From positions 4,406-68,405 of the IMG/VR virus record IMGVR_UViG_3300035695_000003: a stretch of 64,000 bases of DNA; one strand, written 5' to 3'. Shown one piece after another: positions 503-34,831 of this stretch; the first letter of the stretch is position 1, and each line of letters begins with the position of its first letter. The position numbers were made by a program, and so were the translations under genes. The DNA comes from a virus. The notes under the pieces are model-generated. The model saw only the letters and a list, made by a program, of their open reading frames with translations. It was not told where the DNA came from and ran no database searches.

Positions 503-915
503 GCTCGCATGTGGGCCATCTTTTCGTGCAGCTTTTGTGTGCCTAGCGCTTTCAGAGAGGCTCTTGCTCCTATCCGACCCTGCTCTGTTCGTTGCTCGGG
601 TGTCTGTCGATGCGTCGGGCTGTTGAGCGATCGCGTGGCCGTCGTGTTGCGAGACACAAGGGCAAACCCACGGCCCGCAAGATCGTCGGCCACGGCCTGC
701 TCTGCTCGGGCCAATGCCTGTCGCGACGCGCGCGGTAATTCTCTGACGATCACGCAATCGAGCCCAAGACGTGCCGCCAGCACCAACGTCGCGCGCGACT
801 CGCAGCACGAAGCGCTGCCCACATAGACGCCGAGCGGTCCCATGATGGCATAGACGCCTGATGTCACTTCGCGCCCTGTTCGCGTCGGTAGTATTCCACA
901 TCGCTCGCCTTGCAT
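481..915 (-). CDS. hypothetical protein (uncertain ORF)
   Basis: 144-aa ORF whose central part is not low-complexity (..VYAIMGPLGVYVGSASCCESRATLVLAARLGLD..). It overlaps the neighbours at both ends, so the true start is probably internal. Confidence 0.25.
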   Translation of the reverse strand: MQGERCGILPTRTGREVTSGVYAIMGPLGVYVGSASCCESRATLVLAARLGLDCVIVRELPRASRQALARAEQAVADDLAGRGFALVSRNTTATRSLNSPTHRQTPEQRTEQGRIGARASLKALGTQKLHEKMAHMRACKRTAR

Positions 916-1280
916 CGGTGTCCGAACGCCTTCACGGTCGCCATGATCTCGGCGCCGGTCTGTCCCTCGGCGATGCCCTTGCGGATGAGCTTCGCCTTCG
1001 TGATCGTGGGACCCTGGGAAGCCGGTCGAGGTTGCTCCGACTTGTTGTCCCGACCCGACGCTTGCGCCTTCGGGTTTCCCAGGGCCTCACGACGCGCACG
1101 GACACGCTCAGGCTCTTTGAGCCCCTTCGCGTCGTACCACGCCTTCTGCACCGCGTATCCCGTCGCGCCGTCGAGCGTTCCGACCGTGGCCATCAGGCCG
1201 TCGCGCAGCGGGTACGTCGTGCCGGCGACGACGATCTCGCCGATCTGCGTGTTCGGACCAGCTGTCGTTTCGTCAGTCAT
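864..1280 (-). CDS. hypothetical protein
   Basis: Balanced composition from MTDETTAGPNTQIGEIVVAG..; the upstream ORF extension is R/G-rich junk. Confidence 0.5.
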   Translation of the reverse strand: MTDETTAGPNTQIGEIVVAGTTYPLRDGLMATVGTLDGATGYAVQKAWYDAKGLKEPERVRARREALGNPKAQASGRDNKSEQPRPASQGPTITKAKLIRKGIAEGQTGAEIMATVKAFGHRCKASDVEYYRREQGAK

Positions 1281-1335
1281 GAGGCGCCAAAAATAACGTC
1301 GGGGGACGGCTCGCGCCATCCCCCGAACGTCGTGG

Positions 1336-4031: not shown

Positions 4032-5986
4032 TCCTTCCAGGCATCGCCCGTCACCATGCGCGAGACGTCGCGCTTGCCGCGCAGGGCGCCGACGACGCGC
4101 TCGTCCACCGTGCCGCGGGCGATCACGTCCACGATGGCCACCGAATGCCGCTGCCGGACGCTCGACGCCCGGTCTTCCGACTGCAGCCTGCTCTCGAGAC
4201 TGAACCCGTTCGACACGTAGCAGATCGTGCGCGCCTGGTCCAGGTTGATGCCGAAGCCGCCCGTCTCGGTCTGTCCTACCAGAAACCGGACGCTCGAGTT
4301 CGGGTCTTGGAACGCCGTCCGCGCCGCGATCCGCCCGTGGTCGTCCACGCCGCCGTGAAACTCGACCACGGCGTCGGCGCCGTACTCGGCCCGCAGCGCG
4401 GTCGCGCAGGCCTCGATCTCTGGTCTGAACCGGCACCACACGATCATCTTGCCCTGCACGTCGCCCGCGAGCTCCATGACGGCGTCCACCTTCGGATTGC
4501 CGCCCGGGATCGGGCGCGCGATCGTCGGCGTGCCGTCGATCAGCTGCTCGGCCTCGGTCGTCTGCGCGGCCACGAAGCCGCCCGCGATCTGCGCGAGCCG
4601 GAGCATCTGGACGATCACGAGCTGAGCCGTGACCTTGCGCCCGTCCATCTCGGCCCGCATCTTCTGGACCATGTCGCGATAGATGCGCGTCTGCTCCGGC
4701 GTCATCTCGACGACGCGCTTCTGATACCCCTTCGGCGGCAGATCGAAGCACTCGTCGCGCGTGATCCTGAAGCTGTACGGGTCGATCAAGGCCTGGAGCT
4801 CGTCCAGGTGCTGATAGCCGAGCACCGCCTTGCCCTGGAACCCGCCCATCAGCGCGTACCGGTTGCGGAACGCGTAGAACGAGCCGAACCCGAGGATCTT
4901 CGGATCCAAGAACTCGAACTGCGAATACAGGTCCAGCGGGCCCTGCGTCGCCGGCGTGCCGGTCAAGATGCGCCGGATCTTGGCGTGGCGCCGGAGCGCC
5001 TGGGCCGCCTTCGTCCGCGCCGAACGCGGCGTCTTGATCCGCGTCGACTCGTCGATCGCCACGAACGTCGGCGCCCGCCGCACGAAGTCCATCGCGATCT
5101 TCGCACCGCGCGGCGTCGACAGCGCCTCGACGTTCATCACCAGCCAGCACATCTCGGTCTCGGAGCCTTCCAGCACGGCCGCGATCGCCTGCTCGTCTGC
5201 CTTGTTCGGCGACGACTGCCACGCCGCGGCCTTGTACGAGACGTAGTCCGGCATGTGCTCGGGCAACGCGTCCGTGACCCACTCGGTCTTGGTCGAGTTC
5301 GGCGCGATCACGAGCGCCTGCCGTACCTGACCGCGGATGTAGTTCCAGCACGCCGTGTCGATCGTCAGCTTCGTCTTCCCGGTCCGCTGCTCCGCGAACA
5401 CCGCGAACGCCGGCATGTCGCGACTGATCAGGAAGCAGCGCCGCTGCCAGTCGAACGGGGCCGGCCCGCCGTGCTTGTAGTCGTCCGGTCCGATCTTCGC
5501 GCGGAGCTCTTCCAGCGTCGCCTGCTTGTCGAGCGTCGCCTCCGTCCGCTCCGACTCGTGGGCGACGACCTCGTCGCGCCACGCCGCGGCCTGCGGGTCC
5601 CAGTCGGCCTGCGGGAACGCGGCGAGCAGGTACTGGACGTTGCGGCGCGTCGGCTTCGCGCGCCAGGCCTGGTCCGTCGTCGACCACGTCCGATAATCCG
5701 GGATGCGTCGGAGCCGCTCGAGATTCGACTGCGACCACGGGGTCTTGATCCGCAGCATGCCGCGGTGTGCGGTGATCGCGTAGCCCGTGGTCTTGGGCTC
5801 CGGGACGCCGGTCAGGTCGAAGCCGACCGCCCGCATGGCGTCCCACGTCTCTCGCGTCCAGGGCGCCTGCCACGTGCCCGTGCCGGCATCGAAGCGCCGG
5901 TTCGGCAACGAGCGCACCATGCGGAGCGATGCAGGCGTCGGCGCGAAGGTCATCACCAGCGTCTGATCTTTCAGTTCGATCTGCAT
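4022..5986 (-). CDS. SNF2/DEAD-like superfamily II helicase
   Basis: Start MQIELKDQ (TAATG overlap at 5986). Motif I FAEQRTGKT, motif II IDESTRIK (DExx), motif III ILTGTP, and C-terminal helicase motifs (QTETGGFGINL). Confidence 0.85.
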   Translation of the reverse strand: MQIELKDQTLVMTFAPTPASLRMVRSLPNRRFDAGTGTWQAPWTRETWDAMRAVGFDLTGVPEPKTTGYAITAHRGMLRIKTPWSQSNLERLRRIPDYRTWSTTDQAWRAKPTRRNVQYLLAAFPQADWDPQAAAWRDEVVAHESERTEATLDKQATLEELRAKIGPDDYKHGGPAPFDWQRRCFLISRDMPAFAVFAEQRTGKTKLTIDTACWNYIRGQVRQALVIAPNSTKTEWVTDALPEHMPDYVSYKAAAWQSSPNKADEQAIAAVLEGSETEMCWLVMNVEALSTPRGAKIAMDFVRRAPTFVAIDESTRIKTPRSARTKAAQALRRHAKIRRILTGTPATQGPLDLYSQFEFLDPKILGFGSFYAFRNRYALMGGFQGKAVLGYQHLDELQALIDPYSFRITRDECFDLPPKGYQKRVVEMTPEQTRIYRDMVQKMRAEMDGRKVTAQLVIVQMLRLAQIAGGFVAAQTTEAEQLIDGTPTIARPIPGGNPKVDAVMELAGDVQGKMIVWCRFRPEIEACATALRAEYGADAVVEFHGGVDDHGRIAARTAFQDPNSSVRFLVGQTETGGFGINLDQARTICYVSNGFSLESRLQSEDRASSVRQRHSVAIVDVIARGTVDERVVGALRGKRDVSRMVTGDAWKEWI

Positions 5987-7857: not shown

Positions 7858-8340
7858 TCAGTCCTTGTAGAAGCGGAAGTATTCGCGGTCGATGTTGCCC
7901 GGGGGCACGACCTCGGTGCGCGTCGCGGCCCAGGCCGGCGCGGAGTCTTTCGGGACCATGGACGCGGGCGAATAGTACCACAGCGCGCCGAATCCCGGCG
8001 CGACAGCCAGGTATTCGCCCGACGACCAGACGTCGATGCAGCGCTGCACGTGCATCGGCTCCCAGAGCCCAGCCATCGCCTTGACCCAATAATCTTGCCG
8101 GCACACGGCGCTGAACTGGTTCTTCTGGAGCACGACCTCGACGGCCGTGCCCGGGAAGCGCGCGTCTGCCACCCGGTTCCTGATCACCTGACACACGGCC
8201 TTGATGGCCGGCACGATCATGTCCGCCGTGAACGTCCCCACGGGGGCGGGCGGGACCTCCGTCGCCGCCGTGCAGGCCACGACGTAGTCCGGCCCGTTGC
8301 AGTCGATCATGTCAAGTCTCCTCTCTTGGACGATCTTCAT
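7858..8340 (-). CDS. cell-wall hydrolase, SleB/CwlJ (Hydrolase_2) family; endolysin candidate
   Basis: MKIVQERR.. with ..VIRNRVADARFPGTAVEVVLQKNQFSAV.. (conserved QxNQFS core). The upstream 30 codons of the track ORF are the antisense of a tRNA. Confidence 0.65.
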   Translation of the reverse strand: MKIVQERRLDMIDCNGPDYVVACTAATEVPPAPVGTFTADMIVPAIKAVCQVIRNRVADARFPGTAVEVVLQKNQFSAVCRQDYWVKAMAGLWEPMHVQRCIDVWSSGEYLAVAPGFGALWYYSPASMVPKDSAPAWAATRTEVVPPGNIDREYFRFYKD

Positions 8341-8428
8341 GGCGCCGCCAGGATTCGAACCTGGGATGTTCACCACGTGGGTGGCGGTTTTACAGACCGC
8401 TGCCTTCAGCCTCTCAGACCACGTCGCC
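8340..8428 (-). tRNA. tRNA-Tyr (anticodon GUA), class II with a long variable arm
   Basis: Minus-strand sequence GGCGACG-UG-GUCU-GAGAGGCUGA-AGGC-A-GCGGU-CUGUAAA-ACCGC-CACCCACGUGGUGAACAUC-CCAGG-UUCGAAU-CCUGG-CGGCGCC-A. All four stems pair, with one A:G mismatch in the acceptor stem. Confidence 0.75.
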
Positions 8429-8445
8429 ATAGTCGTTGGTGACGG

Positions 8446-23993: not shown

Positions 23994-24227
23994 CTACTCC
24001 TCTTTCCGCAGGAAACCGGCCGCCACGAGCGAGGCCAAGAACCTCGCCGCCGTTGCCGGGTCGATCAGCGGGGCGCCCGGCCGCTGCTCGTGGCAGCGCC
24101 GGCTCACCTCGCGCATGTAGGGCCCCTTCTGGTCCATCTCCATCCACGCGGCGCGCGTCATCTTGCGCACCACGACCCGCGCCGTCGGGCCGGCGAACGT
24201 CTTGCCGCCGCCGTCCGCGTACCGCAT
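23994..24227 (-). CDS. hypothetical small protein translationally coupled to the GATase gene
   Basis: TGATG stop/start junction at 24225-24229; MRYADGGGKTFAGPTARVVVRKMTRAAWMEMDQKGPYMREVSRRCHEQ.. Confidence 0.4.
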   Translation of the reverse strand: MRYADGGGKTFAGPTARVVVRKMTRAAWMEMDQKGPYMREVSRRCHEQRPGAPLIDPATAARFLASLVAAGFLRKEE

Positions 24228-25246
24228 CAGTCCCCCTTTCCCGTCAGTGCCCGCCGCGCCTCGTCGCGCGCGGCCTCGTGGACCCACTTCCCGTCGCGCC
24301 ACTCGTCGCCGCGGCGCCAGCTGGTGGCCGCCACCGCGCACGAGGAACAGAGCCGGACCCCGTTGATCGTGGCCATCTCGAACGGCTTCCACAGGTCGAG
24401 GCACGACCCGCACTTCTCGTACTCCTGGCCGTTCTGGCCCCAGATCTTCGTCGTGCCGAGCTGGGCGCGCCGTTTCTTGCCGCCCTTCTTCTGCGTCTTC
24501 CCGGCCCACCACCAGCTGGCCCGCGGGCTCTCGCCCGGCCGGTAGCGCACGAGCACGCCTTCGTCCAGCTCGCTGGTGCCGTTGCACGTGAGCCGGCTCA
24601 GCTCGACGGCGGCCGTCAAGATGTCCTTCGTGCTCGCGAAGGCCACCGCGTTCAGCTCGGCGACCCGCGTCCGCCACAGGGGATTCCCGCGCCGCGTCAG
24701 CCACAGCTCGGGCTCTCCGTCCGTGCCCTGTCGGCCCAGCGCCAGCGCCAGCGAGCCCTCGGCGCGCCGGAGCATCTTGCCCCAGCCGGCCGCGGGCTCG
24801 ACCGCGAGCGCCGCGATGAGGTTCGCCGAGTCGACGGCGTAGGTCGTGCCGCCCCGCGCGACGAACCGCGCGTGGTTGTTGATCACGCCGTTGTGCACGC
24901 CGACCGTCTCCGTGCCGTCCTCGTCCGCGAAGGCGAACGGGTGCGCGTTGGCGTCGGTCACCGCGCCGTGCGTGGCGAACCGCGTGTGCCCCACCAGCGC
25001 GAGCGTCGCGCCGTTCGGGACCACGAGGGCCTTCCATGCCGGATCGGCGATCAGCTCCCACGCGGGCACCGCCCGCTTGAGCACGTGCGCTGGCTCGCCC
25101 GCGTCCAGCCTGTACAGGCCGGCCGAGTCCGTCCCCCGCGCCGTCGAGAGCGCCGCCAGGCTCGCCGCGAGGCGCGCCCAGCCTGCCTTCTCGGCCTCGG
25201 TCAGCGCCGGGCCCTTCGTTCTGATGATGCCGTAGATGCCGCACAT
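24227..25246 (-). CDS. class-II (Ntn-type) glutamine amidotransferase-like protein with a C-terminal Zn-finger
   Basis: Starts MCGIYGIIRT (Cys-2 nucleophile, hallmark of GATase-II/Ntn hydrolases); ..HTRFATHG..NAHPF.. core; C-terminal CGSCLDLWKPFEMATINGVRLCSSC. Confidence 0.8.
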   Translation of the reverse strand: MCGIYGIIRTKGPALTEAEKAGWARLAASLAALSTARGTDSAGLYRLDAGEPAHVLKRAVPAWELIADPAWKALVVPNGATLALVGHTRFATHGAVTDANAHPFAFADEDGTETVGVHNGVINNHARFVARGGTTYAVDSANLIAALAVEPAAGWGKMLRRAEGSLALALGRQGTDGEPELWLTRRGNPLWRTRVAELNAVAFASTKDILTAAVELSRLTCNGTSELDEGVLVRYRPGESPRASWWWAGKTQKKGGKKRRAQLGTTKIWGQNGQEYEKCGSCLDLWKPFEMATINGVRLCSSCAVAATSWRRGDEWRDGKWVHEAARDEARRALTGKGD

Positions 25247-25721
25247 CGTCTGCCGTTCTCCTTTCAGCGGAACGCGTAATGATAACACAAACTGCTGCCG
25301 ACGACCATCCCGAGTCGGCGTCGATGCTACTATCTCTGCTGTCAGATAATCTGACAGTCGATCCGATGTTACCAATCGTCGTGTTCGGAAACGGCCTGAA
25401 CACGTGTCGCACAAGTGTTTAGCGTGTTCGCGAGTGTTCGGAACACCGTCGCTGGCCGCGTAACTTCTTATGCCGCTTTTGTTCAGGTGCTCTCGGGCAA
25501 AATCGTCATTGCTAACATCACCTCCGTTCTGGGTCCACGGAACGCCGTAACTTCTTATGCCGCTTTTGTTCCGCGTGTTCCGCGAACAGCCGGAACATTG
25601 GCATTGGCGTCGTGTTCCGCCTGTTCAGACCCTTAGGTCTGAACGGCGAACACCCATGCCCGTGTCAGAACACCTTCGATCATGGCGCCGCGAGGAGTCG
25701 AACCCCGTCGGCGCGGTCTGC
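25247..25721. promoter_or_regulatory. palindrome- and repeat-dense regulatory island (operator cluster and/or origin)
   Basis: 19-bp perfect palindrome CTGTCAGATAATCTGACAG (25339-25357). At least 5 GTGTTC...GAACAC inverted repeats (25381-25403, 25426-25446, 25576-25592, 25609-25655 nested). 26-bp direct repeat CGTAACTTCTTATGCCGCTTTTGTTC at 25459-25484 and 25546-25571. Confidence 0.5.
25681..25706 (-). other. tRNA 3'-end-like fragment (24/26 identical to the 3' end of the tRNA-Tyr gene at 8338-8363); candidate att core or tRNA remnant
   Basis: catggcgccgcGaggaGtcgaacc versus catggcgccgcCaggaTtcgaacc. The remainder does not fold into a tRNA. Confidence 0.4.
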
Positions 25722-25916
25722 CTACTTCAGGTACAGCACCCAGCCCCGCCGGGTGACCGCCATGCCGTGGTCGATGCCCTGGTCCGTCATGAAGGCAGCG
25801 ACCTCGCCCGCCGTGCTGCCGTTGGTGAACAGCGCCTTGCCCTGCTCGATCACGAAGCCTGCCAGCCTGGCGATCGTCGCCTGGCCGAGCACGCCTCCTC
25901 TCGCGATGCGCGTCAT
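25722..25916 (-). CDS. small protein encoded directly downstream of the amidoligase gene
   Basis: SD GAAAGGACG 8 nt before ATG 25916; MTRIARGGVLGQATIARLAGFVIEQGKALFTNGSTAGEVAAFMTDQGIDHGMAVTRRGWVLYLK. Confidence 0.5.
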   Translation of the reverse strand: MTRIARGGVLGQATIARLAGFVIEQGKALFTNGSTAGEVAAFMTDQGIDHGMAVTRRGWVLYLK

Positions 25917-25935
25917 CTGATCAGCTCGTCCTTTC

Positions 25936-27090
25936 TCAGGCGGCCCGCCGGAAGGCGGTCCGGTAATAGTCGGGGTTCCGGTCGAACGTCCACCGCGCCA
26001 GCGTCCGCTGGACGGCGTCGCCCATCACGATCCGCGCGAGCGACCAGCGCCGCGCTTCCGTCCACGGGGGCAGCACGCGGCGCGCCGCCTGCCGCTCCGT
26101 GCCGTCCCACGTCCGCGTCCGCTGCACGTGCAGCTCCAGCGCCCTGTCGAGCTGGTCGTCCGTGCAGCGCTGCGCGAAGTCGACCACCCGCTGCGTCGCG
26201 AGCAGCCACCAGCCTGCCTTGTTCGCGTCGAGCGTGCCCTGATGCGCCCGCATCTCGACGCGGCCGTGCCGCCACCAGTTGGTGAGGTTCAGCGCCTGGT
26301 AGCGCCCGAGCCTGCGCACGTGCGCCGGCAGATCCGTCAGCGCCGCCGAGTCTTCTGCGAACTCGCGACCCCAACGCTCGGCAAACGTGTTGCGCCGCCT
26401 GTCCGTGGGCAGCGCCTCGTGCAACGGCGTGTCGAGCGCGCCCCAGAGCCTGATCAGTCGCTGGACGAAGCCCGTCGTCCGCGCGACCCGCGCCTCGTGA
26501 TGCACGTGGAAGCCGCAGCGCCTGTCGACCCGCGCGCCCGCCGCGACCAGCGCGTTCAGCACGGCCACGACCATCGGCCAGCTCGCCGCCGTGATGGCCG
26601 GCGTCACCATCTCCCACTCGCAGCTGCCGTCGGCCTTGACGTCCCACGTTCGCCCGGTCGAATGGCGATACTCGTGATCGTCGCTGACCTGCTGTTCCGG
26701 CCACGGCGCGAGCGCTTCCCGCACCACGTCGGCCCACTCCGAGCCCGAGCGATATCGCGCGCCCGGCCCGCTCGGGTTGACGAACTCGAACTCCAGCCCG
26801 AAGCGCCGCCGCTGGTCCAGCATCGCTGGATCGAACAGCTCGCCCGGCCCGTCGGGATCGCCCGACCAGCCGATCGGATCCGGCACCGCGTCTGGCAGCG
26901 TCAGCGGGCTCGCCGGCAATTGCCGGCTTCCCCGTTGCCGCGGCCCGCGCGCCGCCTCGCTCCGGTAATACGACAGCGTGTGTCGGGGATCGGCGCAGGT
27001 CGGATGCCTGTCTCTCAGCATCCGCAGCACCGCGTCGTCCGACGCGCCGTTCGCGATGTACTCGCGAACGTCATGCGCTATCGAAGGCAC
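25936..27090 (-). CDS. amidoligase-family (GCS2/glutamine-synthetase-like COOH-NH2 ligase) protein with an N-terminal ~45-aa repeat domain
   Basis: GTG start after AAAGGGGG. N-terminal VREYIANGASDDAVLRMLRDRHPTCADPRHTLSYYRSEAARG (the repeat domain), a linker, then ..RFGLEFEFVNPSG.. (amidoligase G-x-E-x-E-F start) and ..CGFHVHHE... Confidence 0.65.
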   Translation of the reverse strand: MPSIAHDVREYIANGASDDAVLRMLRDRHPTCADPRHTLSYYRSEAARGPRQRGSRQLPASPLTLPDAVPDPIGWSGDPDGPGELFDPAMLDQRRRFGLEFEFVNPSGPGARYRSGSEWADVVREALAPWPEQQVSDDHEYRHSTGRTWDVKADGSCEWEMVTPAITAASWPMVVAVLNALVAAGARVDRRCGFHVHHEARVARTTGFVQRLIRLWGALDTPLHEALPTDRRRNTFAERWGREFAEDSAALTDLPAHVRRLGRYQALNLTNWWRHGRVEMRAHQGTLDANKAGWWLLATQRVVDFAQRCTDDQLDRALELHVQRTRTWDGTERQAARRVLPPWTEARRWSLARIVMGDAVQRTLARWTFDRNPDYYRTAFRRAA

Positions 27091-27180
27091 CGTGCCCCCT
27101 TTCTGGTGAAGTCGCCTGCTCTTCGCGGCCGCTTGCGGCGAGGCCGCTTCGCCCTACACGCGAATGATAAACACGCGCGC

Positions 27181-27224
27181 GTAACAACCACGTAACGGAA
27201 TTGTAACAATCGTGTAACAAAACG
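27181..27224. repeat. four tandem 11-bp GTAAC iterons upstream of the amidoligase gene
   Basis: GTAACAACCAC|GTAACGGAATT|GTAACAATCGT|GTAACAAAACG; GTAAC at 27181, 27192, 27203, 27214 (one helical turn apart). Confidence 0.6.
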
Positions 27225-27294
27225 ATCGGTCCAACCCGTCGCCGTGCATGCCTAGCCGGCTCGCCGAGGAGCCGGCCCCCGCGCCCGTCGCGGA

Positions 27295-27489
27295 CTAGGC
27301 CAGTATCACCCTTATCGTCGGCACGCCGGCGGTTTCTTCGGCGCCGTACGTCTCGACTTCGACCGTGAACACCACCTTCTCGCCGACCCAGGCGTGCGAC
27401 ATCGTCGCGCCCCGCACCGATCTGTATTGCGGCAGCGCCGCGCAGATCGTCATCGCCTGGTCTTCGGTCAAGCCAGTGATGCGCTTCAT
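27295..27489 (-). CDS. hypothetical protein
   Basis: MKRITGLTEDQAMTICAALPQYRSVRGATMSHAWVGEKVVFTVEVETYG.. Confidence 0.45.
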   Translation of the reverse strand: MKRITGLTEDQAMTICAALPQYRSVRGATMSHAWVGEKVVFTVEVETYGAEETAGVPTIRVILA

Positions 27490-27632
27490 TTCAGGATCGC
27501 GGTCGCCGCCGCGAACCCCAGCAGCGCCCGCGCCCCGTACTTCGCGACGCCCTCCCACATCAGGCCGTCGGCGACCAGCAATCGCCGCATTTCGGCCTCC
27601 GACACCATCGCGGCCGCGCCGCGCTTCACCAT
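27486..27632 (-). CDS. hypothetical small protein
   Basis: MVKRGAAAMVSEAEMRRLLVADGLMWEGVAKYGARALLGFAAATAILK. Confidence 0.3.
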   Translation of the reverse strand: MVKRGAAAMVSEAEMRRLLVADGLMWEGVAKYGARALLGFAAATAILK

Positions 27633-27640
27633 CGCCAGTT

Positions 27641-27922
27641 TCACAGGTCTTCGCCACCTTTCTCGCCCTGCGTGGTGTTCGCTTCGTCTTCTGCGATCTT
27701 CTTCAGGTGCTCGTAGTCCGCCAACACGTCGGCGGCGCTCTGACACGCGATCGGCATCTCCTGCACGTAAACCTTGCAGCCGTCGACGATGCCGCTGATC
27801 GCCGCCCAGAGCGCGTCTGCCTCCAACTTGTCGCCGTAAAACTCCGTCACGTCGAGGTCGTTGTCGTCGTCGACGTCGATCAGTACCAGCAGCCACCGTT
27901 TCAATTCGCCGTCTTTCGCCAT
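27641..27922 (-). CDS. acidic hypothetical protein
   Basis: MAKDGELKRWLLVLIDVDDDNDLDVTEFYGDKLEADALWAAISGIVDGCKVYVQEM.. Confidence 0.5.
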   Translation of the reverse strand: MAKDGELKRWLLVLIDVDDDNDLDVTEFYGDKLEADALWAAISGIVDGCKVYVQEMPIACQSAADVLADYEHLKKIAEDEANTTQGEKGGEDL

Positions 27923-28080
27923 TTACAATCGCCACCTTTCTCGCCCTGCTCGGCGGGAAAACGCCCGCCTCGGCCAACGCCATCTTCTGCAAGTCGCCGG
28001 TCGGGAGTCGCACCCGTGGCCCGCATTCGGCCCGGCGAAACAGCAAGGCGGGGCGCCGACCGCTCGCCCCGCCAGTCGCC

Positions 28081-28404
28081 TCACGCCGCCGCGGCGCGCC
28101 GCGCTTCGCGCTGGTAGAACCGCAGCGTCCGGCGCGGGTTGACGCAGGTCGGATACTTCTCCATCACCATCTGCAGAATCGCCCGCTCGTCCGTCCCCGC
28201 CGCCAGCGCCGCCCTGACGTCTGCCGCGATTCCGCCGCGGGGCTTGACGTCAAGCGAAAACGCCGTCCGCGCTTCGCTCTTGTAGTACGCCAGGGTCCGC
28301 GCCGCATTCGCCGTCGCGGGAAAATCGCTGTGAATCATCGCCAGGATCTGCTCGTCGGACTGGCCAGCGGCCAGGGCACTGCGCACGGCCTGCGCGGTAG
28401 TCAT
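28081..28404 (-). CDS. protein made of two tandem copies of the ~45-aa repeat domain that also heads the amidoligase
   Basis: Repeat 1 VRSALAAGQSDEQILAMIHSDFPATANAARTLAYYKSEAR; repeat 2 VRAALAAGTDERAILQMVMEKYPTCVNPRRTLRFYQREAR; SD AAAGGGA before ATG 28404. Confidence 0.6.
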   Translation of the reverse strand: MTTAQAVRSALAAGQSDEQILAMIHSDFPATANAARTLAYYKSEARTAFSLDVKPRGGIAADVRAALAAGTDERAILQMVMEKYPTCVNPRRTLRFYQREARRAAAA

Positions 28405-28956
28405 TTTGACTCGTCCCTTTCTTGCGACACTCGCGTCAGCGCTACAGTGCAGCGTCCGCGCGATGTCAATCTTTCATACGGGGTAGCGCCCCGCGCGCCG
28501 CGAACCATCCTTCCGCCCGCGTGACCTAAAGCTACTAGCTTTATGGCGTAAAGCTAGTAACAATCGTGTAACGGAAAACCGTATATTTATAAGTCCCTCC
28601 GCCCCATGCCCGAGCACGAAAAATGTATAACTATACAGCCCGGTGAATAATTATTCATTTCATCGCGTCCGCGCGACATGCGCAGCGTGCGCGCTGCAAG
28701 ATAATGGCTCAAAGGCTGAAGGACGAAGGTCCGTCGCGCCGGCGCTGCAATTTCGGGGCGGGGGGTGCTGGAAAATCGGGCGGGGGCACTAGTCCGGCGA
28801 ATCGCATCCGGAATCGAGACTGATCCAGACCATGCGCGGACAACGGCTTGCAGCCCGTGGTCCCAGAACCTGGAAGCATGATTCGCGACGGTTCGCACGT
28901 GCGCCCACGATGCGCGCACTGGCGCGCACGACCCTCTCGACCTAGGTTCGCGACAC
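28405..28956. promoter_or_regulatory. AT-richer divergent control region between the leftward early and rightward late modules
   Basis: TTGACA at ~28448 (minus strand). GTAAC iterons AGTAACAATCGTGTAACGG (28555-28573). 15-bp palindrome AAAGCTACTAGCTTT (28526-28540). 12-bp perfect palindrome GAATAATTATTC (28644-28655). Bipartite motif at 28916-28951 (see findings). Confidence 0.5.
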
Positions 28957-29100
28957 ATGAAGACCATCCAGAAGGTTCAGCTGCAGTTGCCCGCGCCCGT
29001 CGCCCGTGCCTTGGCGAGGCGCGCCCTGAAGACGAACGAGCGTCCCGCCCAGCTCGCCGCGCGCCTGGTCCTGGAAGCGCTCTTCAGGAGGGTCCGGTGA
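28957..29100 (+). CDS. ribbon-helix-helix DNA-binding protein (47 aa; not in ORF track)
   Basis: MKTIQKVQLQLPAPVARALARRALKTNERPAQLAARLVLEALFRRVR; the first gene of the rightward module. Confidence 0.45.
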   Translation: MKTIQKVQLQLPAPVARALARRALKTNERPAQLAARLVLEALFRRVR

Positions 29101-29267
29101 GCGCCCCGAAGACCGTCGTGCAGGGGCCGCCGCTCAGATACTGTTGTCTGTGCGGGCAATGGCACGTCTGGTCGAGTGCCGGGTGCCCGAACCAGGGCGG
29201 CGAGAGCCCGGCGCGCCTGACGCCCGAGCAGGCCGAACGGCTCGGCGAGCTGATCCGCCGGGCATGA
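29097..29267 (+). CDS. small Cys-rich protein
   Basis: GTGA-coupled; ..RYCCLCGQWHVWSSAGCPNQ.. Confidence 0.4.
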   Translation: MSAPKTVVQGPPLRYCCLCGQWHVWSSAGCPNQGGESPARLTPEQAERLGELIRRA

Positions 29268-30317: not shown

Positions 30318-31904
30318 GTGCCGACGGGGATCGACAGGCGCCGGCTCGCGACGCTCGAGCGCGAATGGGGCGAAGAGCTCGCGCGGCGAGAGCGCGAAGG
30401 CCAAGAGACGGACTACACGCGCTACGCGGACGATCCCGAGGGCTTCGTCCGCGAGGTGCTGCACGACGACAAGGTCTGGAGCGCGCACGACGAGGCGGAT
30501 CCCGAGATCGGCGGCACGCTCGAGATCATCCGGAGCGTGAAGGACAACGCCCAGACGGTCGTGCGCGGCGCCAACGCCATGGGGAAGGACCACACGGCGG
30601 CCGAGATCATCTGCTGGTGGGTGTACGCGTGCCACGGGCTGGCCATCGTCACGGGCCCGACGCAGCGGCAGGTCGACGAGATCGTGTTCGGCCGCGAGAT
30701 CAAGGGCCAATGGGCGCGCGCCGGACTCCCGGGCCGCGCCTTCGCCCGTGCCTTGCGCCCCGACTACGGCACCGACGACGTGAACGAGGACGGCACGTTC
30801 GCGTGGGGCGCCCTCGGGTTCGTCTCGACGGACCACTCGCACCTCACGGGCCATCACGGGCCCCGCGTCTTGTGCGTCGTGACGGAAGGCCAGGGCGTGG
30901 AAGACATGGTGTTCGACGCCATGTTCAACAACGCCACGGGCGCGAACGACCGGCTCTTGGTCGTCGGGAATCCGACGGACCCGGGCGGCCGGTTCTACAA
31001 GTCGACGAAGCCGGGCTCTGGCTGGCATTCCATCCGGCTCCGGGCCCAGGACCATCCGAACATCAGCCGCGAGGGTGCCAGGCCCGGCGACGACGGCTGG
31101 ATCTGGGGCGGACCCTCGCGCGAGTGGCTGGAGCGCGTCCGCCGCGAGACCCGCGACGAAGGCGGCGAGCGCAGCCGGTTCTGGCAGGTGTTCGTCGAGG
31201 CCCAGTTCCCCGAAGGCGCGACGGACGGCCTCGTGCCGAAGTCGTGGGTGCTCGCGGCCTTCAAGCGCTGGGAGACGGGCGACCGCGCCGCGGGCAACGG
31301 CCGGCCGCTCGTGATCGCGATCGACCCGATGCGGACGGGCGGCGACCACTGCGCGCTCTCGCCCGTGACGGGTCCCGTCGTCCACCCGCTGTATCACTTC
31401 CGGCCCGACGAGCGGAACCCGACGCTCGACATGGTGGCGAAGTGCGAGGCGCTCGCGGCCGCGTACGGCGCGATCGGGGCCGGGGCCGGCAGATCCGTGA
31501 CCTTCGTCGTGGACTCCGCGCTCATGGGCGGCGGCGTGATCGACGTGATGCGCTCGCGCGGCTGGGACGTGGTGGACTGGAACGGGAAGCGACGGGCCTC
31601 GGACGCCGAAGAGCCCGCGCGCTTCCTGGACATGCGCGCGTGGGGCTACTGGCTCCTGCGCGAGGCGTTCCGGCAGAACGTCCCCGTGATCAGGCCGGAC
31701 GACGGGCTCCTGGAAGACCTGATGGCGACGCGCTACGAGACGGGCGCCGCGGACCAGATCAAGATCATCGACAAGAAAGAGATCCGGCGGACGCTCGGGC
31801 ATTCGCCCGACAAGGCGGACGCCGTCATGATGGCCTGGACCATCGCCAACGGCGGCGGCTACGGCCGCGGTGCCGGAGACCCCGACGTGGACTACGGGAT
31901 ATGA
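30318..31904 (+). CDS. terminase large subunit
   Basis: 528 aa. ATPase region (..VVRGANAMGKDHTAAE.., ..LCVVTEGQG..) followed by a nuclease-like region (..LVIAIDPMRTGGDHCAL.., ..SPDKADAVMMAW..). Sits at the head of the structural module. Confidence 0.75.
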   Translation: MPTGIDRRRLATLEREWGEELARREREGQETDYTRYADDPEGFVREVLHDDKVWSAHDEADPEIGGTLEIIRSVKDNAQTVVRGANAMGKDHTAAEIICWWVYACHGLAIVTGPTQRQVDEIVFGREIKGQWARAGLPGRAFARALRPDYGTDDVNEDGTFAWGALGFVSTDHSHLTGHHGPRVLCVVTEGQGVEDMVFDAMFNNATGANDRLLVVGNPTDPGGRFYKSTKPGSGWHSIRLRAQDHPNISREGARPGDDGWIWGGPSREWLERVRRETRDEGGERSRFWQVFVEAQFPEGATDGLVPKSWVLAAFKRWETGDRAAGNGRPLVIAIDPMRTGGDHCALSPVTGPVVHPLYHFRPDERNPTLDMVAKCEALAAAYGAIGAGAGRSVTFVVDSALMGGGVIDVMRSRGWDVVDWNGKRRASDAEEPARFLDMRAWGYWLLREAFRQNVPVIRPDDGLLEDLMATRYETGAADQIKIIDKKEIRRTLGHSPDKADAVMMAWTIANGGGYGRGAGDPDVDYGI

Positions 31905-32950: not shown

Positions 32951-34831
32951 ATGGGCAACGCCAGCGGCGGCAACACCGGCAGCGCGAGTCCTTTCGGCTA
33001 CGGGATGAGCGGCAGCTTCGGCTCGTATCTCTCGGGGTACGGGCTGCGCGTGCCGTCCATCGCGGGAATCACGCAGCCGCTGCTGACGCCGACCTCGTGG
33101 CTCGACTTCATCGCCGAAGACTACGGGTTCAACGTCGGCCGATGGGTCTACGCGCGTGAACATTATACCGGTGAAGTTGCGGCGCCCTGGCGCATCTCGG
33201 CCTACCTGATCCGGAAGAAGATCGGCGAGACGATCGAGGCCTTCGAGGAGCGCGTGCTGCTCGCGGACTACACGCCGTATTTCGGCGCCGTGGTCGACAC
33301 GCTGGCGGGCATGCTCGTCGCGCGCGAAGACGAGACGGACCGCACGTGGGGCAAGAACGCGAAGGGCCGCTCGACCAAGAAGATGGGTCCGCTCGGACAG
33401 ATCCACGACCAGAGCACGATCCTCGGCCGTCTGTGGGTCGATGCCGACGGCCAGCACAACTCGTGGACGAGCCTGTGGCAGATGCTCGCCACGGAGCTCG
33501 TCGCCGTGCACACGTCGTGGATCTTCGTCGACGGCGGCGCGAACGGGCTCGACCCGAAGATCAAGCTGGTGCAGGCCGAGGCCGTGAGCAACTGGCTCTA
33601 CGACCCCGACGGCAAGACGCTGATCCAGGCACTGATGAAGATCCACATCGACGTCCGCACGAGCGTCAAGGAAAATCCGCGGACGGGCTGGGAGACGCAG
33701 TGGGTCCTCTTCACCGTCGACGGCTGGCAGCGCTGGCACAAGGTCCGCAAGGAGGTCGCGGGCCAGGGCGCGTCGAACGACCAGACGGTCGTCGAGGTGC
33801 CCGAGATGATCGACGAGGGCACGTGGCACTACGAGACGCGCGCGGGCGACCGGACCATCCCGCTGCTCCGCGTGTCGCTGCCGCTCAAGCGCAACGTCGG
33901 GTACCTGCTCGCGCGGAAGTGCAACGCGATCTTCAACAAGGAATCGGAGCGCGACCACCTGCTCCGGTTCGCGACGTTCCCGCTCCTGAACATCGTCGCC
34001 GAAGACACGATGTTCAAGCGCATCGAAGACCGGCTCCGGCTCGGCAGCCGCGTGCTGCAAGCCAAGCCCACGGGCGGGGCGTCGGGCGCGCACCACTTCA
34101 TCGCGCCGCCCGCAGAGCCCGCGAAGACGATGGCGGACGCGATCAAGGAAAAGGTCGAGGCGTTCTACGCCGTGGCCTTCCGCGAGTTCGCGAGCGCCGT
34201 GTCGAACTTCAACCGCGACCGCGTCACGGCCACCGAGGTCTTGACGCAGCGCGAGGTCGGCCTCGAGGCGTTCCTCGCCGTCGTGTCGACCGCCGTGGAC
34301 AACGCCGAGAACCAGACGCTCTGGTTCCTGGAGCAGACGGTCTTCCCGAAGGACAAGAGCAAGTGGGGCCAGGCCCGCGTGGAACGGCCGAAGAACTTCG
34401 GGCCGATCAACCCCGCGCAGGCGATCGAGGCGCTGAAGGCGCGCTACGTCGGCGGCGGTCCGCTGCCCGCGGGACGCGCGGCGCAGATCAGCGCGATCAA
34501 GCGCATCGCCGAGTTCGACGGCATCGAGTTCGACGAGAACGAGATCAGCGAGGCCCTGGACTCGGCGCAGCTCGCGCAGTTCGCGGCGACGGTGCAGCTG
34601 ATCTGGCCCGACGCGCCCGACGAGCTCAAGGCCGAGATCATCGCGCAATGGGGCGAGTCGGCAGGGTACGGCACCAAGGACGACCTCAAGACGAAGGCCC
34701 TGGCGCAGCTCGAAAAGAACGCCAAGGCCAACGCCCAGAAACCGTCTAAGCCGGCCGGCGGCAACGCGAACGGCCCTCCCAAGAACGACGCGGATCCCAC
34801 CCGCGTGGACACGGCCGGCATGAACGCCTGA
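32951..34831 (+). CDS. portal protein (by size, position and composition)
   Basis: 626 aa immediately after the terminase block; acidic C-terminus. Confidence 0.55.
   Translation: MGNASGGNTGSASPFGYGMSGSFGSYLSGYGLRVPSIAGITQPLLTPTSWLDFIAEDYGFNVGRWVYAREHYTGEVAAPWRISAYLIRKKIGETIEAFEERVLLADYTPYFGAVVDTLAGMLVAREDETDRTWGKNAKGRSTKKMGPLGQIHDQSTILGRLWVDADGQHNSWTSLWQMLATELVAVHTSWIFVDGGANGLDPKIKLVQAEAVSNWLYDPDGKTLIQALMKIHIDVRTSVKENPRTGWETQWVLFTVDGWQRWHKVRKEVAGQGASNDQTVVEVPEMIDEGTWHYETRAGDRTIPLLRVSLPLKRNVGYLLARKCNAIFNKESERDHLLRFATFPLLNIVAEDTMFKRIEDRLRLGSRVLQAKPTGGASGAHHFIAPPAEPAKTMADAIKEKVEAFYAVAFREFASAVSNFNRDRVTATEVLTQREVGLEAFLAVVSTAVDNAENQTLWFLEQTVFPKDKSKWGQARVERPKNFGPINPAQAIEALKARYVGGGPLPAGRAAQISAIKRIAEFDGIEFDENEISEALDSAQLAQFAATVQLIWPDAPDELKAEIIAQWGESAGYGTKDDLKTKALAQLEKNAKANAQKPSKPAGGNANGPPKNDADPTRVDTAGMNA

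Follow-up and report, generated by a model that had tools for sequence, protein, structure and literature searches.

A helical domain of about 45 amino acids (aa), found twice in tandem in a 107-aa protein and once at the N-terminus of an Amidoligase_2 enzyme, is proposed here to be a putative sequence-reading DNA-binding regulator of GTTRC sites. Both proteins are encoded in a stretch of viral DNA of 64,000 nucleotides (IMG/VR record IMGVR_UViG_3300035695_000003, positions 4,406 to 68,405), which we refer to as the window. We give this reading a probability of roughly 45%. It is supported by the position of the window's sole four matches to a phased pentamer pair, all ahead of the two genes with close copies of the domain, and by the conservation of such pairs upstream of domain-fused amidoligases in four other contigs. 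Further support comes from a GTTAC/GTTGC difference that coincides with a hot spot of divergence in helix 3 of the domain, from amidoligase loci that lack both the domain and the pairs, and from fusions of the domain to DNA-associated modules in other proteins. The coordinates of all features are collected in Table 1.

The pattern GTAAC-N6-GTAAC occurs exactly four times in the window (starting at 27181, 27192, 27203 and 28557) against 0.01 expected, and none of 100 shuffles reached four matches. Since both genes with closely related domain copies lie on the minus strand, the repeats upstream of each gene read GTTAC in gene orientation. The original prediction had described 11-bp-phased GTAAC arrays in front of both genes and a near-identical core within them, and these observations held up: positions 27203-27218 and 28557-28572 carry one and the same 16-mer, GTAACAATCGTGTAAC. 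In gene orientation the repeated element is an 18-bp unit, CCGTTACACGATTGTTAC, which in the window is confined to the array before the amidoligase gene (site 1) and the single pair before the 107-aa gene (site 2), even when three mismatches are allowed. At site 1, the two units are spaced 22 bp.

The tandem arrangement of the domain was recovered by alignment, as the two units of the 107-aa protein (residues 1-47 and 56-107) match each other with a BLASTP E-value of 2e-8. The expected third copy was found in residues 1-50 of the amidoligase, which align with both units at 46% and 41% identity (E 1e-12 and 5e-9), and the motif [RH]TLxxYxxEA is common to the window's three closely related copies. 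The linker that follows the N-terminal unit had been put at about 55 aa; as the Pfam ligase match covers residues 94-297 (65.4 bits, passing the gathering score of 22), its length is instead about 43 residues.

AlphaFold2 folded the full 107-aa protein from its single sequence into two three-helix bundles separated by a disordered linker at residues 47-56, with a predicted local distance difference test score (pLDDT) of 78.6. One unit, modelled from a nine-sequence alignment, gave helices at residues 3-12, 17-27 and 34-49 (pLDDT 88.9). The prediction has the compact, right-handed three-helix bundle of about 45-60 residues that marks tri-helical helix-turn-helix (HTH) domains, consistent with the earlier description of a small helical domain, and on this model we regard the unit as a three-helix, HTH-like bundle. 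A ribbon-helix-helix (RHH) fold was ruled out by the helix starting at residue 3, the presence of three helices and the lack of an RHH match in Pfam. Foldseek comparison of the two-domain model with the PDB returned nothing with an E-value below 0.7, the DNA-binding domains of SETMAR and Mos1 appear among the fold matches, and a structure search of BFVD gave uncharacterised proteins alone.

Phased pentamer pairs lie upstream of all five domain-fused amidoligase genes, namely those of the window and of contigs L001, L009, L010 and L131. Four of these five loci read GTTRC-N6-GTTRC; the fifth, L010 (P0051), has an imperfect cTTGC-N6-GTTAC on the opposite strand. In L001 (2.25 kb), which encodes a partial homologue of the 107-aa protein (P0002, 70% identical) and an amidoligase with an N-terminal unit (57% identical), all four GTTAC pentamers are kept at 811-858 as a perfect 22-bp tandem, followed by TATCAT. 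In L009 (P0040), GTTGCaatcccGTTGC precedes the domain-fused amidoligase and GTTGCacgatcGTTGC the operon after it, and in L131 GTTACaatcctGTTAC and GTTACaggactGTTAC stand at the corresponding positions. These two more distant relatives have two pairs per locus against 0.01-0.04 expected. L131 and the window belong to one phage lineage (PolA 63.5%, GATase 46% and amidoligase 41% identical; GATase, class II glutamine amidotransferase). No pair was found near the gene at the amidoligase loci without the domain (L133, L136, L138 and L139). Neither the domain alignment nor the window amidoligase alone detected a relative in the viral, metagenome and genome collections scanned; an alignment of four amidoligases detected only domain-less amidoligases (genomes and IMG/VR) and one metagenome locus, L131.

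Within each genome the pentamer is uniform: GTTGC at four of four positions in L009, and GTTAC at four of four in L131, six of six in the window and four of four in L001. Over their whole length the amidoligases of L009 and L131 share 79% identity; in helix 3 of the N-terminal domain, by contrast, just 6 of 14 residues agree (TPACVAYYRSEARR versus DERDVAFYRWQTRR), which makes it the least conserved 14-aa segment of the two proteins outside the disordered linker. L131 also encodes a separate 78-aa single-unit protein, and this shares the helix-3 signature DVxFYRW with the amidoligase copy of the same contig.

A promoter scan of 25200-29200 called no canonical sigma-70 promoter. The -10-like hexamers that we list downstream of both window sites are our own reading of the sequence rather than scan calls. 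The form TAnC[AT]T also follows the pairs elsewhere, at 21 nt from site 2 in L009 and L131 and at 25 nt (L009) and 33 nt (L131) from site 1. If TAnC[AT]T serves as a -10 element, the pairs would be centred near -42, and also at about -32 and -54, in promoters that have no -35 hexamer. A pair near -42 fits the position of an activator, with repression also possible, and the fourth site-1 pentamer, which would lie within the spacer of the promoter, might act in repression as well.

Site 2 is abutted by a palindrome whose plus strand reads TAGCTTTATGGCGTA and carries the 12-mer CTTTATGGCGTA. L009 and L131 have the same 12-mer beyond the hexamer of their own site 2, but with the pair upstream on the same strand; this arrangement differs from that of the window, so the direction served by window site 2 is ambiguous. 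Beyond the palindrome CTAGCTTTATGGCGTAAAGCTAG, within 28535-28660, there is an AT-rich stretch (…TATATTTATAAG…AAAAATGTATAACTATAC…AATAATTATTCATTTCAT) that is unusual for a genome of 68% GC. The GC-rich hairpin GCCGGCTC-N6-GAGCCGGC between the 107-aa operon and the amidoligase promoter is kept in L001; it has no U-tract and was not called by the terminator scan.

Several results weigh against specific recognition of GTTRC by the domain. The loop between helices 2 and 3 (residues 28-33, with a conserved FPxAxT) has six residues in place of the tight turn of three to four residues typical of HTH domains. Across the rest of the family, helix 3 shows strong conservation (YRS..KK), a pattern that fits a common, non-specific target as well as specific recognition. 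The five positive loci come from one phage lineage and are not independent. The window's fourth, weaker domain copy has no iteron upstream, L131's 78-aa copy has no pair upstream, and the second site in L009 and L131 precedes genes that do not encode the domain. Most family members examined have no phased repeats upstream, among them the phrog_17767 genes of phages PaMx28, PaMx74, DoCa6 and Donnerlittchen, which have ordinary TATAAT promoters. The tandem-unit loci L008, L140, L141 and L143 have no phased pentamers, only GCATCA[CT] heptads beside an RHH gene. Finally, an IMG/VR scan for four phased GTTAC pentamers yielded at least 119 loci (L011-L129), with the domain within 5 kb in none of the matches listed. 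Many of these are TGTTACA arrays with variable spacers in unrelated phages, and the loci are unrelated to the window phage save for a weak SNF2 match. From these arrays it follows that the link between iteron and domain is lineage-specific rather than general, and that other proteins can read such arrays. The original prediction had suggested searching other phage genomes for the domain next to GTAAC arrays; phased pairs turned up at the domain-fused amidoligases of four other contigs, and not at most family members.

The phased-GTTAC contigs include groups of 65-67% GC (L040, L046, L063, L071, L078, L091 and L101) and of 34% GC (L011, L026, L048 and L079). Among the tandem-unit loci, P0089, P0061 and P0029 share a neighbourhood with a divergent 110-aa RHH_1 gene (L140 2860-3010; L141 2860-3010; L143 1875-2027). 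Each of the intergenic regions of L140, L141 and L143 contains four GCATCA[CT] heptads that co-vary between loci, and the units are followed by variable defence-type cargo (GmrSD_N, HEPN, DNA methylase and Vsr). The heptads are more likely operators of the RHH protein.

The phased GTTAC arrays in contigs without the domain, together with the second sites of L009 and L131, are what one would expect if a different factor read the pentamers and the domain genes were merely among its targets, an explanation that we consider unlikely. Candidates for this factor are the small 77-83-aa protein encoded at 23997-24245, the RHH-looking 47-aa open reading frame (ORF) at 28957-29100 and a host regulator of the OmpR/PhoB type. 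The small protein is co-conserved with the amidoligase and the GATase in three phages and has a weak match to HTH_IclR (E 0.007, under the cut-off); between L009 and L131, however, it differs by scattered substitutions with no hot spot. The 47-aa ORF resembles an RHH protein by eye (VQLQLP, then two helices), but it matched nothing in Pfam, PHROG or NCBIfam and has no homologue in the L131 and L009 stretches examined. For a host regulator speaks the layout, as direct pentamers phased by 11 bp near -35 form the classic site of the OmpR/PhoB family. These regulators bind such repeats head-to-tail, overlapping -35, as winged helices with beta-sheets, unlike the all-helical 50-residue unit described here, which has no receiver domain. 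The actinobacterial GlnR box consists of an a-site and a b-site, gTnAc-n6-GaAAC, repeated twice (PMC10235972). GTTAC resembles and satisfies the a-site, and the operon encodes nitrogen-type enzymes; the b-site GaAAC is not present (three of five positions agree), and the GTTGC of L009 breaks gTnAc at four of four pentamers. As to the host, PolA, Pam3_Gp34 and the domain-carrying isolated phages point to Gram-negative hosts rather than actinobacteria; the window PolA is 33% identical to PolA of proteobacterial phages, and its TerL is just 30% identical to that of actinophages (Streptomyces, Arthrobacter). With a mismatched b-site, the variant GTTGC and no evidence for an actinobacterial host, GlnR/PhoB-type host regulation was rejected as the leading model. 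More generally, the concerted switch between G and A in close relatives argues for a co-evolving factor that is encoded by the phage.

Searches of Pfam, NCBIfam and the PDB with single sequences and profiles gave no significant match for the window copies; a hit to the TrpA alpha chain (E 0.006) was dismissed as a chance segment of a TIM barrel. The claim that the domain was previously undescribed stands to that extent, and it fails in that the domain matches phrog_17767, which is annotated as function unknown, with E 5.5e-10 for the 107-aa protein and 2.3e-5 for amidoligase residues 1-56. The matches are restricted to positions 1-56 of the 247 of the profile, and the first ~50 residues of phrog_17767 proteins are the same domain as the window units. 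Unlike the window proteins, the phrog_17767 proteins combine a single copy with a C-terminal part of ~190 aa, for which the window proteins have no counterpart, and lack GTTAC iterons upstream. By tblastn, we located the unit at the N-terminus of hypothetical proteins of 223-256 aa in Pamexvirus PaMx28 and PaMx74 (gp47), in Bosavirus DoCa6 (gp51) and Bosa and in Janthinobacterium phage Donnerlittchen (gp25), as well as inside a 1192-aa 'minor head protein' of Xanthomonas phage FMYAK-P1. The window unit is 32-40% identical to the phrog_17767 members.

Word-indexed homologue searches gave two matches for the 107-aa protein and eight for the amidoligase, and the family becomes visible only through PHROGs, tblastn on phage genomes and a full scan with a hidden Markov model (HMM). 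Our nine-unit profile, run against 1.84 billion representative proteins, found 471 clusters, formed at 50% identity and mostly from phages, with E <= 1e-3, of which 52 reached E <= 1e-10; the family consensus is tIadiIRagIaaGKtNeeILaaVkaaFPdAnTsaACVaWYRSkMKKaG. The commonest architecture is an N-terminal unit in a protein of about 230-270 aa, and small proteins with two or three tandem copies also occur. The arrangement of an N-terminal unit followed by an amidoligase recurs in P0004 and L131 and in two further clusters, P0040 and P0051. DUF7552 (PF24422) covers helix 3 and the basic extension in P0064 (31.4 bits, above the cut-off) and P0073, and weak DUF5069 (PF16798) matches recur in the family; for the window copies, matches to either were not significant (best E 0.01, at 16 bits where the cut-off is 27). 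The two are Pfam families of unknown function; the literature searched makes no mention of DUF7552, and a survey of polyvalent proteins does not name the domain.

The domain HMM additionally picks up neighbours of the phrog_17767 gene (E 1e-7 to 1e-10), on both sides in PaMx74 and Donnerlittchen and on one side in PaMx28 and DoCa6 (L002 4873-5421; L003 2458-2772 and 3752-4438; L004 2460-2792; L005 2295-2891 and 3351-4358). These four phages accordingly have paralogue clusters, which adjoin a module of thymidylate synthase, dCMP deaminase and dihydrofolate reductase (DHFR).

The partners of the domain also bear on what it binds. Two copies occur in head proteins that join MuF with an ADP-ribosyltransferase (MuF-ART; 12 members). 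SNF2 (P0129) and Prim-Pol/PriCT_2 (P0161) carry the domain at their C-terminus, it adjoins an AT-hook (KRGRGRPKG) on an RpiB enzyme (P0025), and in P0017 it alternates with histone-H1-like KAAK tracts. Further fusions involve Peptidase_M48, DUF6745, an integrase and Lsr2_DNA-bd. The head proteins, the SNF2 and Prim-Pol fusions, the H1-like tails and the AT-hook would suit a module that binds nucleic acid non-specifically, a general DNA tether or nucleoid-associated module that holds enzymes and ejected head proteins on DNA, with the iterons as unrelated promoter elements. The exposed YRS and KK of helix 3 and the basic C-terminal extension (KAGxxVPTS..RxRK), strongly conserved in the family, agree with such a role. 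We find it improbable nonetheless: the window copies are not very basic and have no KK tail, and a non-specific tether leaves unexplained the uniformity of the pentamers within each genome, the hot spot in helix 3 and the location of the sole window sites before both close-copy genes. Still less probable, in our estimate, is a module for protein-protein contacts or targeting that makes no contact with DNA and serves to recruit phage or host complexes or to package proteins into the capsid. Several enzymes that carry the domain have no obvious DNA substrate (amidoligase, RpiB, Peptidase_M48, ART and DUF6745), which speaks for this explanation. It would, however, reduce the co-variation of site and helix 3 and the conservation of promoter-proximal sites to coincidence, and the associations with AT-hook, H1-like, Lsr2, SNF2 and Prim-Pol are typical of DNA-binding modules.

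The window, which comes from a 68.4-kb JGI contig, is phage-like and has 68% GC. Minus-strand genes run from the left end to 28404 and are followed by a divergent control region of 552 bp (28405-28956) and then by plus-strand structural genes; other products include PolA, SNF2 and a primase-type AAA protein. A scan of GTDB genomes found no relative, prophage relatives included.

Table 1. Positions of the domain copies, phased pentamer sites, putative control elements and selected genes in the window.
Feature	Coordinates	Strand	Evidence or remark
Site 1: four GTTAC pentamers, 11-bp phase, two 18-bp units	27181..27218	-	About 90-130 nt before amidoligase start
Site 2: one GTTAC-N6-GTTAC pair	28557..28572	-	About 150 nt before 107-aa gene, inside 28405-28956
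TATCAT, putative -10-like hexamer	27164..27169	-	11 nt after last and 22 nt after third pentamer of site 1
TAGCTT, putative -10-like hexamer	28529..28534	-	22 nt after site 2; direction ambiguous, adjacent palindrome
Palindrome CTAGCTTTATGGCGTAAAGCTAG	28535..28557	.	Abuts site 2
GC-rich hairpin GCCGGCTC-N6-GAGCCGGC	27245..27266	-	Between 107-aa operon and amidoligase promoter
Two-unit 107-aa protein gene	28081..28404	-	First gene of leftward operon; GC at third codon positions (GC3) 0.85
Domain unit 1, residues 1-47	28264..28404	-	Alignment, BLASTP, domain HMM score 53.8
Domain unit 2, residues 56-107	28084..28239	-	BLASTP E 1e-12 to amidoligase N-terminus; HMM score 50.3
Amidoligase_2 enzyme, 384 aa, one N-terminal domain unit	25936..27090	-	Pfam PF12224 E 9.2e-18
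Amidoligase N-terminal unit, residues 1-50	26941..27090	-	Domain HMM score 47.7
Fourth, weaker domain copy, C-terminus of 151-aa ORF 864-1319(-)	876..1007	-	Six-frame hmmsearch E 2.4e-6
GATase, start at Met-Cys	24227..25246	-	Pfam GATase_6 E 6.2e-10
Conserved small protein, about 77-83 aa	23997..24245	-	After amidoligase and GATase in window, L131 and L009
47-aa ORF, opens rightward operon	28957-29100	+	Divergent from 107-aa gene
TerL	30318-31904	+	Structural gene block
Portal	32951-34831	+	Structural gene block

The ATG start codon of the amidoligase is kept in L001. In every relative the GATase is found alongside the amidoligase (tblastn from L131, L009 and L010); its PHROG matches begin at residue 57 of the long ORF. 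The distant tandem-unit relatives are divergent from an RHH_1 gene, as the 107-aa gene is from the RHH-looking 47-aa ORF. Between the 64-aa ORF at 25722-25916 (minus strand) and the GATase start lies a repeat-rich intergenic region (25247-25721) with an exact 26-nt direct repeat (25459-25484 and 25546-25571); 9 of the window's 55 GTGTTC/GAACAC hexamers fall, as inverted pairs, within 25381-25668. In L009 and L131 the GATase directly follows the amidoligase and this region is missing; it could represent an inserted element, an origin or a second set of operators. A tRNA-like element at 25684-25740 on the minus strand matches the Rfam family mascRNA-menRNA below the gathering score (28.5 bits, E 0.0074) and was not called by ARAGORN; the Rfam scan of 25200-29100 found nothing beyond it. 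An exact 21-nt repeat, TCGCCACCTTTCTCGCCCTGC, occurs at 27651-27671 and 27929-27949, directly upstream of two consecutive small genes, with a copy in L001 too; on the coding strand the sequence is GCAGGGCGAGAAAGGTGGCGA, with the ribosome-binding site inside it. Among the early genes, a gene for tRNA-Tyr (GTA) occupies 8339-8429 on the minus strand and overlaps the end of ORF 7858-8430.

Several known systems resemble parts of this arrangement. Lambda CII binds TTGC-N6-TTGC direct repeats that straddle -35, as a homotetramer of single-HTH subunits with 10-bp phasing. The window system is similar in its short direct repeat with a 6-bp spacer, in the location of the repeat in the -35 region of phage promoters with no hexamer at that position and in its phage-encoded HTH-type candidate; it differs in having two domains per chain and 11-bp phasing, with no sequence kinship and with binding that is predicted here. 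Two HTH units contact successive major grooves in MarA/SoxS/Rob of the AraC family, in Myb R2R3 and in the paired and mariner bipartite domains. These share with the 107-aa protein the presence of two HTH-like units in one polypeptide, but they show no sequence kinship to it, nor are their units near-identical copies, and they do not bind simple direct repeats. The trigger enzymes BirA, PutA and NadR carry an N-terminal DNA-binding domain and repress their own operon. The amidoligase is comparable in its small N-terminal domain, which is DNA-binding-like, and in the cognate-looking sites upstream, kept in five loci; the fold differs (winged HTH in BirA, RHH in PutA), as does the enzyme, and autoregulation is here putative. 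Judged by sequence, the window system is a member of none of the CII, PhoB-type, MarA/paired-type or trigger-enzyme groups. We regard the domain as a new HTH-like family whose cognate site can plausibly be named, and its sole database home is the N-terminal part of phrog_17767.

Taken together, we suggest the following model for the domain as a reader of GTTRC. The unit would belong to a large, mainly phage-borne family of three-helix HTH-like DNA-binding domains and would recognise the pentamer GTTRC in this phage lineage. With its two domains carried by a single chain and held together by a flexible stretch of about 10 residues, the 107-aa protein would act as a two-headed reader, each domain contacting one pentamer of a head-to-tail GTTAC-N6-GTTAC pair, with both pentamers on the same face of the DNA, one helical turn apart. 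Given one pair before its own operon and two pairs before the amidoligase-GATase operon, the protein may control both, presumably as an activator that also autoregulates. The enzyme-borne copy could give the amidoligase an affinity for the same sites, so that it would feed back on its own promoter in the manner of BirA/PutA or stay tethered to phage DNA. A bolder version, to which we attach little likelihood, is a new class of module in which tandem copies read direct repeats at one pentamer per unit and the amidoligase fusion is a DNA-targeted ligase at phage promoters. Such a ligase might sense its substrate and switch its own operon, as BirA/PutA do, or ligate an amino-acid-type group onto DNA or DNA-bound proteins.

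The family is large (at least 471 clusters), almost entirely from phages and without coverage in Pfam, NCBIfam or the PDB, so that a function for it would carry over to hundreds of phage proteins now called 'hypothetical'. Those that stand to gain include conserved genes of the early region in phages of Pseudomonas, Xanthomonas, Stenotrophomonas and Janthinobacterium, as well as the MuF-ART head proteins. The 18-bp site CCGTTACACGATTGTTAC offers a first concrete candidate target for the domain, and a natural specificity variant, GTTGC, comes paired with a diverged helix 3. If it is true that the amidoligase copy binds its own promoter, the enzyme would add a phage example to the few self-regulating enzymes and would provide a handle on the recurrent and still unexplained pairing of amidoligase and GATase in phages.

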